Shown here piece by piece: positions 9,257-14,852 of a stretch of 64,000 nucleotides of DNA. The stretch covers positions 71,082 through 135,081 of the forward strand of contig JBKHKD010000002.1 of the NCBI GenBank assembly GCA_046537785.1. Reading direction: 5' to 3'. A program made the translations under genes and the position numbers. A model generated the notes under the pieces. The model was not told where the DNA came from. It worked only from the letters and a program-made list of their open reading frames with translations, and ran no database searches. Positions within the stretch are counted from its first letter, which is position 1. Every line of letters starts with the position of its first letter. The DNA is from Actinomycetota bacterium (GTDB lineage Bacteria > Actinomycetota > Acidimicrobiia > Spongiisociales > ZC4RG35).

Positions 9257-10288
9257 TCAGGGAAGGAGGTCTGCCCAGGGAAGCCCTTCGGAGTCATCGA
9301 GGAGCCCGGCGAGTCCGGCGAGATCGTGAGGGGGGTTGGGATGCCACGGTACGGTGGCCACCCGGGCCCCGTAGCGGGCGGAGAATTCGTCGCGGGCGTC
9401 GGCCTGGCGGACGGTCTCGGCACTCCACTGCTGGACGACCCGGCCGAACTCCGTCGACAGACCCGGGTCCGGTTCCACTCCTGCCCACTCCTTGGGGAGG
9501 GCTCGGTTGAACACAACGGCAGCCGGGGTGGAAGCGAGATCAGGGAGTTGGCGAAAGAAGCGGACGGCCTCAGCGACCGGCGCCGGGTCGGCCGTGGTGA
9601 TCACCAGAGTGGCCGCGTCTCGCAATACTGTCTCGATCTCGCGTCCCCGGCGGGCAACACCGTCGTAGGTGGTGCGCAGGTCGAGCAGGAACTCCGATAC
9701 CCGCTGGAGCAGGTCGGAGCCGAGGACGGTGTCGGCCACCCGGAGCATCGGCCGGGCGGCGCGGTTGTAGAAAAAGCGGCGGCCGGGGAGTGGCCCACCG
9801 GTGATCCAGCGGAGGAGACGACCGCCGACGAGGTCGGCCATCTGTGCCGGAGCGGTGAAGAAGTCGATCCCTCCTCCGGATGGGGGTGTGTCGACCACTA
9901 CCAGGTCCCAGGCGCGCGCCTGGACGAAGGTGGCCGCCTGGTCGGCAGCGGCGTAGGACTGGGAGGCCGGGAAGTGCTCGGAGGCGGCCCGGAAGAACTC
10001 GTTGTCCGCCAGCCGGGTGGCGACCTCGGGGTCGGCATGACGCATGGCAACGGCGCGCCATGATGCCTGGGAGTCGAGCATCGCCGCCCACAGGTTCTCC
10101 TCGTGCTCGTGGGGCTGTGGTTCGTCGCCGAGGTCCTGGACTCCCAGGGCGGAAGCCAGTCGCCGGGCCGGATCGACGGTCACCACGAGAGTGCGCACGC
10201 CGGCTCGGGACGCCTTGACCCCGAGAGCGGCGGCGACTGTGGTCTTCCCCACACCGCCGGCTCCCGTCACGAGGATGGTCTGCGTCAC
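9257..10288 (-). CDS. ArsA/GET3-family anion-transporting ATPase homolog
   Basis: P-loop ILVTGAGGVGKTTVAAALG and an ArsA-like body. It overlaps the upstream paralog by 4 nt. Confidence 0.8.
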   Translation of the reverse strand: MTQTILVTGAGGVGKTTVAAALGVKASRAGVRTLVVTVDPARRLASALGVQDLGDEPQPHEHEENLWAAMLDSQASWRAVAMRHADPEVATRLADNEFFRAASEHFPASQSYAAADQAATFVQARAWDLVVVDTPPSGGGIDFFTAPAQMADLVGGRLLRWITGGPLPGRRFFYNRAARPMLRVADTVLGSDLLQRVSEFLLDLRTTYDGVARRGREIETVLRDAATLVITTADPAPVAEAVRFFRQLPDLASTPAAVVFNRALPKEWAGVEPDPGLSTEFGRVVQQWSAETVRQADARDEFSARYGARVATVPWHPNPPHDLAGLAGLLDDSEGLPWADLLP

Positions 10289-11130
10289 GTCAGAGCCTCC
10301 AGCTCGTCGCTGATGTGTGCGGCCACCTCCGCGGGGGTGAAGAGCCCGAAGAGGTAGGGGAGGGTGATGGCGGGCGGAAGCTCACGAAGCCACTTTTCCT
10401 GCTCGTCGTTCAGCGAGCGGTGGAGGGTCACCATGTCGCCCACCGGGCCATTCGGCGGGTCGCCGGGACCCACCTTCTCCAGGATCCGGTTGGCGACGAC
10501 GACGGGGTCGCCCACGACGCCGGTCTGTTTCACCCAGTCGATCGTCTCGGCAGTCTCGGTGGTGGGCAGCTCCTCGGCGAGAGTCACGAGCAACAGCTGG
10601 GTTATGTCCGGGTCGCCGAGTGTCTCCGCCATCCACTGCGACTGGCTGCGGATCCGTCCCGTTGTGACCAGTTCGGAGATCGAAGCTGGAGCTCGCAAGT
10701 AGGAGGCGATCTGGCCGGTCGGGGGAGCGTCGACCACGACGAGGTCCCAGCGGTCCTCCCGCACCTCCCAGAGGATCTTGCCGATGGTGACGATCTCGCG
10801 TACTGCGGGTGCGGCCGTCGCCAGGGCGTCGAAGGCACGCGCCATTGCCCCGAACCGGCCCATACCCGGAAGTCGGAGCTGAAGGGAGAGGTACTCCAGG
10901 AGAGCGTCGGAGCGGACGATCTGCATGGCGTGCAGCCCGGGCCGCACCTCGCGCGGTTCGAACTCGAGGGGTCCGGTCCCGAAGTGAGCGGAAAGACCGC
11001 CGCCGGACTCCATCTCCACGGCGAGGATGCGGAGGCCGTGACGTTGTCCCAGCAGGGCCAGGGCCGAGGCGACTGCCGACTTCCCCACGCCGCCCTTACC
11101 GGACACGATCGCCAGGCGCTTGTCGAGCAT
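10285..11130 (-). CDS. ArsA/GET3-family ATPase homolog, tandem paralog
   Basis: P-loop AIVSGKGGVGKSAVASALA and DAPPTGQ switch region; 281 aa. Confidence 0.8.
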   Translation of the reverse strand: MLDKRLAIVSGKGGVGKSAVASALALLGQRHGLRILAVEMESGGGLSAHFGTGPLEFEPREVRPGLHAMQIVRSDALLEYLSLQLRLPGMGRFGAMARAFDALATAAPAVREIVTIGKILWEVREDRWDLVVVDAPPTGQIASYLRAPASISELVTTGRIRSQSQWMAETLGDPDITQLLLVTLAEELPTTETAETIDWVKQTGVVGDPVVVANRILEKVGPGDPPNGPVGDMVTLHRSLNDEQEKWLRELPPAITLPYLFGLFTPAEVAAHISDELEALT

Positions 11131-11149
11131 CAGGAGCCCCGGCTTGTCG

Positions 11150-11368
11150 TCAGTTGTCGCCCTTGAGCGGAATCCTCAGCACCAGGTGGGCGTCGTCGAT
11201 CTCCCAGGATGCGCTGGCGACGAGAGCGAAGTCGGTGTAGTCGGTTTCCGCCTGATTTATGAACTTCTTCCGCTCCTCGCCGGCGACAGGAGGAAGCGGC
11301 CGATCCCGCACCGCCTCGGCGCGTTCTGCATAGCGTTTCAACATGGCATCTACATCGAATTGGGCCAT
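11150..11368 (-). CDS. Small conserved hypothetical protein, first gene of the ArsA-pair operon
   Basis: 72 aa, same strand and 20 bp upstream of the ArsA paralogs. No recognisable motif. Confidence 0.45.
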   Translation of the reverse strand: MAQFDVDAMLKRYAERAEAVRDRPLPPVAGEERKKFINQAETDYTDFALVASASWEIDDAHLVLRIPLKGDN

Positions 11369-11410
11369 GCCCGAACCCTAACCTCGTTCCGCGGGGATCC
11401 CCACGTTCCG

Positions 11411-11551
11411 GGTTGGAACCGCGTACCTCAGGTTGTATGGCTCACATATGAACCGAGAGCCTCGAGAACAACTCGAGGCTCTCGGTTCCATCTTTCTCGA
11501 GGCTGTGGGTTCCGGATATGAGTCACAGAACCTGAGGTACCGGGTTCCACC
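11411..11551. repeat. Composite imperfect palindrome of about 140 bp with a central perfect 17-bp stem and 5-nt loop hairpin
   Basis: 11450..11488 is gaaccgagagcctcgag-aacaa-ctcgaggctctcggttc. A third arm copy, ctcgaggctgtgggttcc, lies at 11497..11514. The outer arms ggttggaaccgcgtacctcaggttgt… and …acagaacctgaggtaccgggttccacc are imperfect inverted copies. Confidence 0.6.
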
Positions 11552-11622
11552 TGGTCGCGCGAGACCGGGAAAAGAAGGGATCGGTCTTACCGGGTGGTGT
11601 CGGGCCCCGGCGGTACGATGGC

Positions 11623-12420
11623 GTGGTGCGGCAATACCACGAGCTTCTCGAGAGGGTTCTGGACGAGGGAACCGAGAAGGGCGACCGGACGGGCACGGGG
11701 ACCCTGTCGGTGTTCGGGCACCAGATGCGGTTCGATCTGACCAAGGGTTTTCCCCTGGTGACCACCAAGAAGGTCCACCTGCGTTCCGTCATCGCCGAGC
11801 TGTTCTGGTTTCTCCGCGGCTCCACCAACGTCGGCTGGTTACAGGAGCGGGGTGTCAGCATCTGGGACGAGTGGGCAGACGACAATGGCGACCTTGGACC
11901 CATTTACGGCTATCAGTGGCGGTCGTGGCCGACTCCGAACGGCGACCACGTCGACCAGATCGAACGGGTGGTCAGCTCTATCAGAGAGAACCCGGACTCG
12001 AGACGGCACATCGTGAGTGCCTGGAACGTCGCCGATGTCGGTGAGATGGCCCTGCCTCCCTGTCACACCCTCTTCCAGTTCTATGTGGCAGACGGACGAC
12101 TGAGCTGCCAGCTCTACCAGCGGTCTGCGGACATCTTCCTCGGCGTTCCCTTCAACATCGCCTCCTACGCCCTCCTCACCCACATGGTGGCCCAGGTATG
12201 CGACCTGGAGGTCGGGGACTTCGTCCACACTCTCGGCGACGCCCACCTCTACCTCAACCATCTCGAGCAGGCCCGTCTTCAGATGGAGCGGGAGCCACGA
12301 GATCTCCCGACGCTCCGTCTCAATCCGGAACGCCGCGCCCTCGACGAGTTCGACATGGACGACGTCGAGGTGCTCGGCTACGACCCGCACCCGGCTATCC
12401 GGGCCCCGATCGCGGTCTAG
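11623..12420 (+). CDS. thyA: Thymidylate synthase
   Basis: Motifs [19 protein letters not shown] and LPFNIASY; 265 aa. Confidence 0.95.
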
Positions 12421-12443: not shown

Positions 12444-12911
12444 ATGCGGACCGTGATCGTGGCCGCCGTCGGAAGCAACGGCGTCATCGGCATCGATGAC
12501 CGTCTTCCGTGGAGCATCCCCGAAGACCTCGCCCGGTTCAAACGGATCACCATGGGAGGGGCCCTCGTGATGGGCAGGGCCACCTTCGAATCGATCGGGC
12601 GCCCACTTCCCGGCCGGACCAACATCGTCTTGACGCGCAATGAGGCGTGGAGTCACGAGGGGGTGGAAGTGGCCGGTTCTTTGGATGCGGCCCTAGAGAT
12701 CGCACGAGCCCGCGGCCAGGACGCATTCGTGATCGGCGGGGCGGAGGTCTACCAGACTGCCCTGGACGTTGCCGACATCCTGGAACTCACCGAGGTCGAC
12801 GCCGCTCCGGAGGGCGACACCTGGTTCCCGGCTGTCGACTGGTCGGAATGGCGGGAGACCGCACGAGAGTCACGCGAAGGGTTCAGCTTCGTCACCTACG
12901 AGAGGGCATGA
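12444..12911 (+). CDS. folA: Dihydrofolate reductase
   Basis: IGIDDRLPW, GRATFESIG and VIGGAEVY; 155 aa, immediately after thyA. Confidence 0.9.
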   Translation: MRTVIVAAVGSNGVIGIDDRLPWSIPEDLARFKRITMGGALVMGRATFESIGRPLPGRTNIVLTRNEAWSHEGVEVAGSLDAALEIARARGQDAFVIGGAEVYQTALDVADILELTEVDAAPEGDTWFPAVDWSEWRETARESREGFSFVTYERA

Positions 12912-12938: not shown

Positions 12939-13250
12939 TTGAGCGCATGTGCTGTTTATCTAAAGGATGTTGTGGCCAAGTTTCTTGTCAGACTCGGAGT
13001 GTTCATCCTGGTGCTGGTGGCCGTCGGTATCGGTGTCGTTCCCATCCTCATCCTCATCGACCTGCTCGACGGGGGCACCGGCTACGGGCTGTGCCCCAAC
13101 GGTCTCGAAGCCTGCGACAAGCCGTACTCGACCGGGGCAGAGATGATCATCATTCTCGGCCTCGGGCTGTTCCTCACCGTTGTCGGTATCCGCCTTCTGA
13201 TACGACTCGCCCGGCGTTTGGACGACGACACCTACCAGGTGAGTCAGTGA
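12939..13250 (+). CDS. Small hydrophobic membrane protein (hypothetical)
   Basis: Two predicted TM helices. The TTG start is uncertain; an in-frame GTG near 12972 is an alternative. Confidence 0.35.
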   Translation: MSACAVYLKDVVAKFLVRLGVFILVLVAVGIGVVPILILIDLLDGGTGYGLCPNGLEACDKPYSTGAEMIIILGLGLFLTVVGIRLLIRLARRLDDDTYQVSQ

Positions 13251-14131
13251 GCGGGAGTCACGGCCTCGGCCTCGCGTGACGCCTCGTCGCGCTGACGGGT
13301 GACTACCACGTAGATGGCGACGACGACCAGCCCGGCTCCGATCCATCCCTGGGTGCCGAGCCTCTCTCCGAGGACCACCCATGCTGTGGCGACACCGAAC
13401 ACCGGCTCGCTGGATAGGACGATGGCGGCGGTGCCGGCACCCACCACGGTCTGTGACCAGATCTGGAGCAGGTAGGCGCCGACAGTCACACCGAGTGCGG
13501 TGAGGGCTATCGCCGGCCACACCGAGCGGTCGGGAATCCCGGGACCCGATTCGAACAGCGCGGACAGTGCTATCGACAGGACGGCAGTGATCGCAAGCTG
13601 AACGGTCGTGAACGGCACCACGGGATGACGGTGGGCGAAGCGGGCCAGGGTGACGATGTGGGTGGCGAAACCGAACGCACACCCGACGGTGAGGAGGTCG
13701 CCGAGCTCGAGACTCAGGCTGTCGACCCCGGTGACGAGGATCAATCCGCCGAAAGCGACGGCAGCGCCTGTCACTACCCACGGACTGGGCGCTCGCCGGG
13801 CCAGGAGCGCGGCGAGAAACGGGGTGATCACCACGTAGAGGCCGGTGATGAGCGCAGAGTTGGCCGCGGTCGTGAACTCGAGGCCGATCGTCTGTAACGC
13901 GTAGCCGCTGAACAAGGCGACGCCGGCCAGAGTCCCGTCGAGCCACAGGCTCTTCCCCTTGGGAATGGCCAGGGTCGCCAGGACGACGGCTCCGATGGCG
14001 AAGCGCCAGGCCACGAAGCTCAGCGGCTCGATGGAGTCGAGAGCGGATTTGACCACCACGAAAGTGGCCCCGAACAGGAACGCGGCGCCGGTCAGGGCAA
14101 GGACTGCCCGGCTCTGTCTGGAAGCAAACAC
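13244..14131 (-). CDS. DMT-superfamily (EamA-like) transporter
   Basis: Ten TM segments with two EamA-like halves. I placed the start at a GTG (14131) to avoid overlap with nth; the track ORF extends to 14230. Confidence 0.65.
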   Translation of the reverse strand: MFASRQSRAVLALTGAAFLFGATFVVVKSALDSIEPLSFVAWRFAIGAVVLATLAIPKGKSLWLDGTLAGVALFSGYALQTIGLEFTTAANSALITGLYVVITPFLAALLARRAPSPWVVTGAAVAFGGLILVTGVDSLSLELGDLLTVGCAFGFATHIVTLARFAHRHPVVPFTTVQLAITAVLSIALSALFESGPGIPDRSVWPAIALTALGVTVGAYLLQIWSQTVVGAGTAAIVLSSEPVFGVATAWVVLGERLGTQGWIGAGLVVVAIYVVVTRQRDEASREAEAVTPAH

Positions 14132-14159
14132 CGGCGGCAGCGTATATACCCTGCCCCGG

Positions 14160-14852
14160 ATGCCAGGGACAAGAGCCGACGGATCCACTCCCACTGCGGC
14201 CGAACGGGGCAAGGCGCGCGCCGTCCTCAACCGTCTCGAGAAGAGATATCCCAGGATGGGGACCGCTCTCGACTACGAGAACCCCTGGCAGCTGTTGGTC
14301 GTGACCGTCCTGTCTGCACAGACGACCGACGAGAACGTGAACAAAGTCGCTCCTGGTCTCTTCGCCCGCTACCCGACGCCCTCCGACCTGGCCGAGGCCA
14401 ACCCCGAGGACGTCGAGAAGCTCATTTTCTCTACCGGTTTCTATCGGCAGAAGACGAAATCGATCATCAGCCTCTCCCGGGATCTCGAGGACCTCTACGA
14501 CGGCGAGGTGCCCACCGACATCGACGACCTGGTGAAGCTCCGTGGCGTGGGGCGGAAGACGGCCTCGGTCGTCCTCGCCGAAGTGTGGGACGTGCCCGCG
14601 ATCGCGGTCGACACCCATGTGAAGCGGGTGGCGGGACGTCTAGGTCTGACCACCGAGACCGACCCCGTGAAGATCGAGACCGACCTCAAGGCGCTGTATC
14701 CCGCCGACGCCTGGTCGGGCCTGTCGATGCGGTTCATCCAGTTCGGTCGTGACGTCTGCGATGCCCGCCGGCCCGACTGTGGCGCATGCGAGCTGTTCAA
14801 TCTCTGCGAGTGGCCGCAGCGGTTTGAGATGGCCGCCAAGAAGACCCGGTGA
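14160..14852 (+). CDS. nth: Endonuclease III
   Basis: HhH-GPD core LVKLRGVGRKTASVVL and a C-terminal 4Fe-4S cluster motif C-x6-C-x2-C-x5-C (CDARRPDCGACELFNLC). Start at internal ATG 14160; the upstream part of ORF 13959 overlaps the transporter. Confidence 0.85.
   Translation: MPGTRADGSTPTAAERGKARAVLNRLEKRYPRMGTALDYENPWQLLVVTVLSAQTTDENVNKVAPGLFARYPTPSDLAEANPEDVEKLIFSTGFYRQKTKSIISLSRDLEDLYDGEVPTDIDDLVKLRGVGRKTASVVLAEVWDVPAIAVDTHVKRVAGRLGLTTETDPVKIETDLKALYPADAWSGLSMRFIQFGRDVCDARRPDCGACELFNLCEWPQRFEMAAKKTR

Follow-up and report, generated by a model that had tools for sequence, protein, structure and literature searches.

Several kinds of short palindromic DNA are known from the intergenic regions of bacteria. 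The ERIC (IRU) elements of enterobacteria and the Correia (NEMIS) elements of Neisseria are non-coding, imperfect palindromes of about 100 to 150 bp, bounded by terminal inverted repeats. A genome carries such a family in tens to hundreds of copies, which are usually co-transcribed with neighbouring genes; Correia elements also have defined TA target duplications and carry promoter or RNase III functions. Each REP unit, the building block of BIMEs and REPINs, is a short palindrome in its own right and has a conserved GTAG-type head; hundreds of copies are present, accompanied by the gene of the RAYT transposase that mobilises them. Long palindromes have been studied in E. coli, where they form cruciforms, show SbcCD-dependent instability, and are stabilised by central asymmetry. 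Asymmetric insertion and central deletion are the classical routes by which a long palindrome becomes stable.

We analysed a stretch of 64,000 nucleotides (64 kb) of DNA from an uncultured member of the Acidimicrobiia, placed in that class by its ThyA relatives; the stretch is called the window below. The spacer between thyA and a divergent small-protein gene contains a nested palindrome of 136 bp, at positions 11414 to 11549, to which, as to its parts, no strand is assigned. The initial annotation had placed this palindrome at 11411 to 11551; the structure is real, with slightly narrower limits, and by eye the sequence past 11414 and 11549 does not fit a further outer palindrome layer. At its centre is a hairpin (11450..11488) with arms at 11450-11466 (unit U2) and 11472-11488 (U3') and the 5-nt loop AACAA at 11467-11471; the stem pairs perfectly over 17 of 17 bp, exactly as had been claimed. 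The imperfect outer inverted repeats were also recognised correctly. They are 34 nt each, the left arm (11414..11447) consisting of unit U1 and the tail GGCTCACAT, the right arm (11516..11549) of unit U5' in reverse orientation, and they are 82% complementary (81-82%). An additional arm of 24 nt, U4' (11494..11517), repeats the right hairpin arm in tandem; it is 71% identical to 11470-11493 and makes the palindrome asymmetric. Within it lies the third arm copy of the initial annotation (11496-11512, 15 of 17 positions identical), which begins 7 nt past the hairpin rather than 9; the 19-nt arm 11494-11512 is 89% complementary to 11450-11468. The element may equally be described as five repeats of the unit GGAACC-N5-CCTCRRG, of which two (U1, U2) run forward and three (U3', U4', U5') in reverse.

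The palindrome is far above chance expectation. Folded as DNA, the 136 nt reach -42.7 kcal/mol, against -17.8 +/- 2.7 for shuffled sequences (z = -9.2), and in an inverted-repeat scan of the whole 64 kb the top-ranked repeats belong to this element. Folding of both strands as RNA, a check that had been proposed at the outset, gave z = -6.35 (plus strand) and -8.5 (minus strand) for the wider region. G+C content is 54% in the element, compared with 62% in the window and 69% in the remaining spacer. There is no credible ORF within the 136 bp, and the termini, TGGAACC and GGTTCCA, extend into the 34-nt arms. With up to two mismatches allowed, the unit matches 17 places in the window against 6.7 expected, and five of these 17 are inside the element. 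A stricter pattern, GAACCN{4,5}CCTCG, has five matches in the window (0.75 expected per 64 kb), four of them in the spacer. One unit-like sequence stands outside the palindrome as a sixth match, U0 (GAACCCTAACCTCG, 11373..11386, plus strand), and overlaps the inferred -10 box of the small gene; the chance probability of this overlap, about 0.001, was computed post hoc. An origin from, or pairing with, the 5' coding region of thyA, with which CTCGAG / GGAACCGAGA is shared, was considered and rejected: the best local alignment score is 21, which 9% of equal-sized chunks of the window equal. By eye, no fit was found to CRP-type TGTGA-N6-TCACA sites, to integron attC sites (R''/R' cores), or to NrdR boxes.

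On the plus strand, thyA (11626..12420) encodes 264 amino acids from GTG 11626 and is followed 3' by dfrA (12444-12911). On the minus strand, a conserved gene for a 72-residue protein (11150..11368) opens the divergent operon, followed by two ArsA-like ATPase genes (10285-11130 and 9257-10288) and a HAD hydrolase. The 254-bp spacer first reported is correct for the first in-frame thyA start codon, GTG 11623. That codon is not conserved, being GTC or CCG in three related loci (L002, L015, and L003), so translation probably begins at GTG 11626, which gives a spacer of 257 nt; 264 residues is also the length of most ThyA homologues, and the NCBI annotation of a metagenome-assembled genome (MAG) gives the same 264-residue product.

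The position of the element relative to transcription bears on most readings of it. Actinobacterial -10 boxes have the form TANNNT, are centred 7 to 12 nt 5' of the start site, and are often preceded by CGN (PMC3898074). Both genes have a conserved candidate of this kind close to the start codon, and neither has a Shine-Dalgarno sequence. For thyA, the predicted box is TACGAT (11614..11619, plus strand) within CGGTACGAT, 6 nt before GTG 11626; it matches the CGN-TANNNT form (PMC3898074), and CGGTACGATGGC is invariant in all eight loci compared (the window, L002, L003, L004, L005, L006, L007, and L015). For the small gene, the predicted box is TAGGGT (11375..11380, minus strand), 6 nt before ATG 11368; it obeys the TANNNT rule (PMC3898074), and GGTTAGGGT/GGTTATGGT is conserved 6 to 8 nt 5' of the ATG in the window, L003, L004, L005, L006, and L015. 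Because these conserved boxes stand 6 to 8 nt before the start codons, both genes are probably leaderless. The element would then lie at -46 to -181 of the small gene and at -77 to -212 of thyA, 5' of both core promoters and within neither transcript. This placement would remove the reading as a structured thyA 5' leader, and a terminator or insulator would have no transcription unit to end; all these roles were offered in the initial annotation. Outward promoters, suggested there as well, are not evident either: a sigma-70 consensus scan of 11100-11900 found no promoter-like site, a result that is uninformative for actinobacterial promoters with a -10 box only.

Several other features of this neighbourhood were observed. 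A C-to-T change at 11379-11384 on the plus strand (TAACCC to TAACCT) is seen only in two element-bearing lineages, those of the window and L015; it creates a TANNNT -10-like hexamer pointing into the palindrome, and the same change completes GAACCCTAACCTCG. At about -55 relative to the start of thyA stands a box, CGGGAAAAGAA (11564-11574), which the window, L002, L007, L015, L003, and L004 share, although silent sites are near saturation between some of these lineages, and which L005 and L006 lack; it is a candidate regulatory site for thyA-dfrA. After it, GGGATCGGTCTTACCGGGTGGTGTC is also conserved in the close lineages (region 11564-11600).

The 72-residue protein has no Pfam match and is always encoded 5' of the ArsA-like ATPase pair; it has 1153 homologues at E <= 1e-10, and those with a named source are all labelled Acidimicrobiia. 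We take this arrangement to resemble the mycobacterial small gene with Rv3679/Rv3680. On the other side, 3' of dfrA, a conserved hydrophobic protein of 92 to 103 residues without a Pfam match (12939-13250, plus strand) has a gene whose 3' end overlaps by a few bases the 3' end of a convergent EamA transporter gene (13244-14230, minus strand). This overlap recurs wherever both genes were called: in the window, L002, L003, L004, L007, L008, L015, and one further related contig.

Gene order across the locus (HAD, ArsA, ArsA, and 72-residue protein genes; thyA, dfrA, small gene, and EamA) is conserved in relatives, and against this constant background the element is present in some and absent from others. 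It is absent from L003, L004, and L005, whose ThyA proteins are 90-92% identical and whose spacers measure 82, 82, and 121 nt, whereas the element-bearing spacers measure 230 nt (L015) and 257 nt (window). The initial suggestion of a MITE- or REP-like insertion is borne out to the extent that the element is lineage-specific and that relatives with conserved gene order lack it. At four-fold degenerate sites, identity to the relatives with 90-92% identical ThyA is 44-50%, so that silent sites are nearly saturated, insertion and ancient loss would both fit, and no clean empty site is visible in such diverged element-free sequence. The only flanking direct repeat is an imperfect one of 6 bp, CCGGGT / CCTGGT. 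Another relative, L006 (ThyA 91% identical), has a 268-nt spacer (L006 256-523) in which an insert of about 190 nt, unrelated in sequence, forms a palindrome of its own from nested inverted repeats, with 37-nt arms at 73% and a core of CTGGGCTGCACA / TGTGCAGCCCAG. Spacer length varies between 82 and 268 nt in the relatives, and palindromic DNA seems to collect there.

Among the lineages that carry the element, three structural versions are found at the one locus, which indicates that the element was inherited and not re-inserted. The window version reads U1 U2, then U3' U4' U5'. In L002 and L007 (ThyA 97% identical), where the right half is covered, U3' is joined straight to U5' and U4' is missing. 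L015 (small protein 96% identical) has U1, the tail of U3', U4', and U5', and is without the 37 nt that form the perfect hairpin. When reverse-complemented, the left arm of L015 matches the right arm of L002 over 24 contiguous identical nucleotides and in 31 of 36 alignment columns overall; the ancestral palindrome was therefore nearly perfect. Arm-to-arm match today is 81-82% in the window and 76-77% in L015. Outer arms of the window and L015 are 83-91% identical, compared with 76-89% at four-fold sites in the flanking genes, a roughly neutral level. Of the 34 arm pairs, one has undergone a compensatory change between window and L015, one has been gained, and three have been lost (our own reading of the alignment), with no clear sign of selection for pairing in these sequences. 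The right outer arm alone is 91% identical between the two, and on sequence comparison is derived and common to both. The cores ACCTCAGGT and GGAACC are retained in the outer units of the window, L015, and L002. The inner right arm with the adjoining CAT is identical at 20 of 20 positions between the window and L002/L007, where neighbouring four-fold sites are 79% identical; under neutrality this has p about 0.01-0.08, and it hints at constraint on the hairpin or at arm-to-arm correction of it. As a separate observation, the loop is AACAA in the window (11467-11471) and TTTTT in L002 (4-8). Flipped, the window loop reads TTGTT, one base from that of L002, which suggests loop inversion by recombination between the perfect arms.

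Searches for further copies were made at several scales. No second copy was found in the 64-kb window by mismatch search, short-word BLASTN, or inverted-repeat scan, nor do the termini recur elsewhere in it, and none was found in about 60 kb of related loci. In the large collections, the scans registered exact matches to the hairpin core and would pass over copies that had diverged or that consisted of just the outer arms; the outer arms were scanned in viral contigs only. With a degenerate form of the hairpin core, a scan for exact matches in 596 Gb of GTDB species genomes, a set to which the source genome does not belong, returned a single hairpin (L009). It lies at a junction of convergent genes, partly in coding sequence and without the outer arms, and was rejected as unrelated. 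An exact search of JGI metagenomes with a 20-mer common to both hairpin-bearing lineages returned two matches (L010 and L011); these lone 20-mers in apparent coding sequence, without the hairpin partner, were rejected as chance. Plasmids and phages (BLASTN) and viral contigs (two pattern scans) gave no match. Rfam 15, folate-related families included, gave nothing in the element region at the gathering threshold in a search of the whole window; at E <= 10 on 1 kb it gave sub-threshold, spurious matches only, for example to miRNA models and to the DnaX frameshift element, which scored 16 to 22 bits against cut-offs of 35 to 100.

The part of the MITE suggestion that implies a repeated family is therefore without a second copy in the data searched. 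The initial annotation had itself named a single copy, lack of conservation in close relatives, and a thyA transcription start downstream of the structure as findings that would point to an incidental palindrome; within the searched data, and with the thyA start at its predicted place, this is essentially the outcome, and it points to that conclusion.

Assemblies of the same species bear on copy number as well. Two of them, a MAG contig (L012) and a k=31 Logan contig (L013), read through the element, making a near-identical second copy in that genome less likely. Three other, independent short-read assemblies, of which two are Logan contigs and one is MAG GCA_046538615.1, break inside it, at 11427 (L019), 11450 (L014/L018), and 11501 (L001/L008), and leave 11428-11500 unassembled. 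Such breaks suggest, but do not prove, either hairpin-related loss of coverage or co-existing structural or population variants.

We consider it probable that the element is an orphan, single-locus palindrome, either a MITE-like insertion or a local inverted duplication, which is restricted to one lineage, is decaying, and has no sequence-specific regulatory role. What is directly observed is how the element is built, that more distant relatives lack it, that the searched data hold no further copy, and that it exists in several structural variants. On this explanation, a palindrome of about 110 bp with almost perfect arms (U1-U2 / U3'-U5') would have entered, or arisen in, a non-transcribed spacer, whether by insertion of a palindromic MITE-like element or by local inverted duplication, both of which fit the data. 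The 24-nt arm duplication would then have occurred in the branch leading to the window and L015, breaking the symmetry; subsequently the 37-nt centre would have been lost in L015, while the outer arms drifted. Arm duplication, loss of the centre, and arm drift are the outcomes expected of palindrome instability. A cruciform could extrude in the negatively supercoiled zone that, under the twin-domain model, would form behind two diverging polymerases. Any effect on the genes would at most be passive, the core promoters having moved apart from about 82 nt to 257 nt. Three observations sit less easily with this explanation: the 20 of 20 identity of the inner right arm and CAT between the window and L002, even though L015 has no hairpin left; the overlap of U0 with the small-gene -10 box, which chance predicts poorly; and the unrelated palindrome in the spacer of L006.

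Other explanations give the element a function or a family. The units could be an array of binding sites, at which a regulator binds cooperatively and represses or couples the small-protein/ArsA-like operon and thyA-dfrA. Five units in the element with a sixth, U0, exactly over the small-gene -10 box, the concentration of the strict pattern in the spacer at four of its five window matches where 0.75 are expected, and the retention of ACCTCAGGT and GGAACC cores in the outer units of three lineages are what such an array would leave, but a palindrome built by duplication yields repeated units automatically. Moreover, unit number and order vary among close lineages, relatives with the same operons have 82-nt spacers and no array (it is absent from L003 through L006), no regulator gene is adjacent to the locus, and the motif does not occur in any other intergenic region of the window, where near-matches at 10963, 38901, and 54705 fall within long ORFs. 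We regard this reading as unlikely. That the element works through a transcribed RNA, whether as a small RNA, as an antisense-blocking terminator at the 17-bp hairpin, or as a long thyA leader starting from TAACCT, we regard as quite improbable. New TANNNT motifs often give rise to new start sites in M. tuberculosis (PMC3898074), a precedent for the TAACCT created by the C-to-T change in the window and L015 only; that change is nonetheless a single evolutionary event, and the conserved -10 box immediately before thyA favours a main transcript without a leader. The folds of both strands are very stable, but every DNA palindrome folds well as RNA, and no Rfam model matches this one. On the plus strand, the hairpin with CATCTTTCTC scores as terminator-like, yet L015 has lost the hairpin, and what follows it in L002 is ATATGTGAG, which contains no T-tract.

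It is likewise unlikely that the element belongs to a MITE- or REP-like family that is still mobile and present in multiple copies in this genome, possibly supplying outward promoters. Size, palindromic build, TG...CA termini, intergenic site, lower G+C, and an insertion-like distribution all fit this explanation, and the imperfect 6-bp flanking repeat can be counted with them, but there is neither a clean target-site duplication nor an empty site, and occupation of the same locus in three lineages speaks for inheritance. The three short-read assemblies that break inside the element (L001/L008, L014/L018, and L019) also count in its favour; against it, two assemblies, including a k=31 Logan contig, read through, and no other copy turned up in the window, the related loci, or the scanned collections. 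No promoter-like site was seen inside the element. We give very little credence to a last possibility, in which the cruciform is a functional DNA-topology device that buffers or uncouples the two promoters, with selection acting on shape and not on sequence. Selection for palindromic shape would explain both the perfect inner hairpin in two lineages and the unrelated palindrome in the same spacer of L006, where a palindrome as such could be favoured. A variant of this possibility would have the lineage-specific TAACCT -10 box fire a structured RNA through the element.

If the orphan-palindrome explanation is correct, the biological import of the locus is small. It would offer a natural snapshot of the birth of a palindrome in a bacterial intergenic spacer and of its subsequent taming by asymmetry and central deletion. 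The practical lesson is a warning, since short-read assemblies break at the hairpin and the locus invites over-reading as a riboswitch or an operator. Wider interest would follow only if the palindromic shape is under selection, with a cruciform truly coupling the divergent leaderless promoters.

Compared with described systems, the element resembles intrinsic (Rho-independent) terminators in its G+C-rich 17-bp stem, 5-nt loop, and partly T-rich plus-strand stretch; it differs in that it ends no transcription unit, all genes upstream of it being on the opposite strand, in that its T-tract is weak, and in that L015 lacks the hairpin and L002 the tail. A place among curated cis-regulatory RNAs or riboswitches is disfavoured by the Rfam 15 result and by a position 5' of what is probably a leaderless promoter. 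With REP, BIME, and REPIN sequences it shares short inverted units that jointly form a long hairpin, but its units have no GTAG head and the 64 kb contain zero further units or elements of this kind. Likeness is greater to the ERIC/IRU and Correia elements, with which it has in common its size class, non-coding and imperfectly palindromic build, and terminal inverted repeats, and also an intergenic site near promoters, presence or absence between relatives, and internal insertions and deletions. Unlike them, it occupies one locus, apparently 5' of both promoters, with no target duplication visible. We therefore file it as behaving like an orphan member of the palindromic intergenic elements, outside any named family, because the window holds one copy, neither a target-site duplication nor a parent IS is visible, and REP features are absent. 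The long palindromes of E. coli provide the closest parallel to its history, with a near-perfect ancestor of about 110 bp, a central deletion in L015, and an asymmetric U4' in the window and L015. Those palindromes are laboratory constructs or rare rearrangements, whereas this one is natural and is fixed in an uncultured lineage of Acidimicrobiia.
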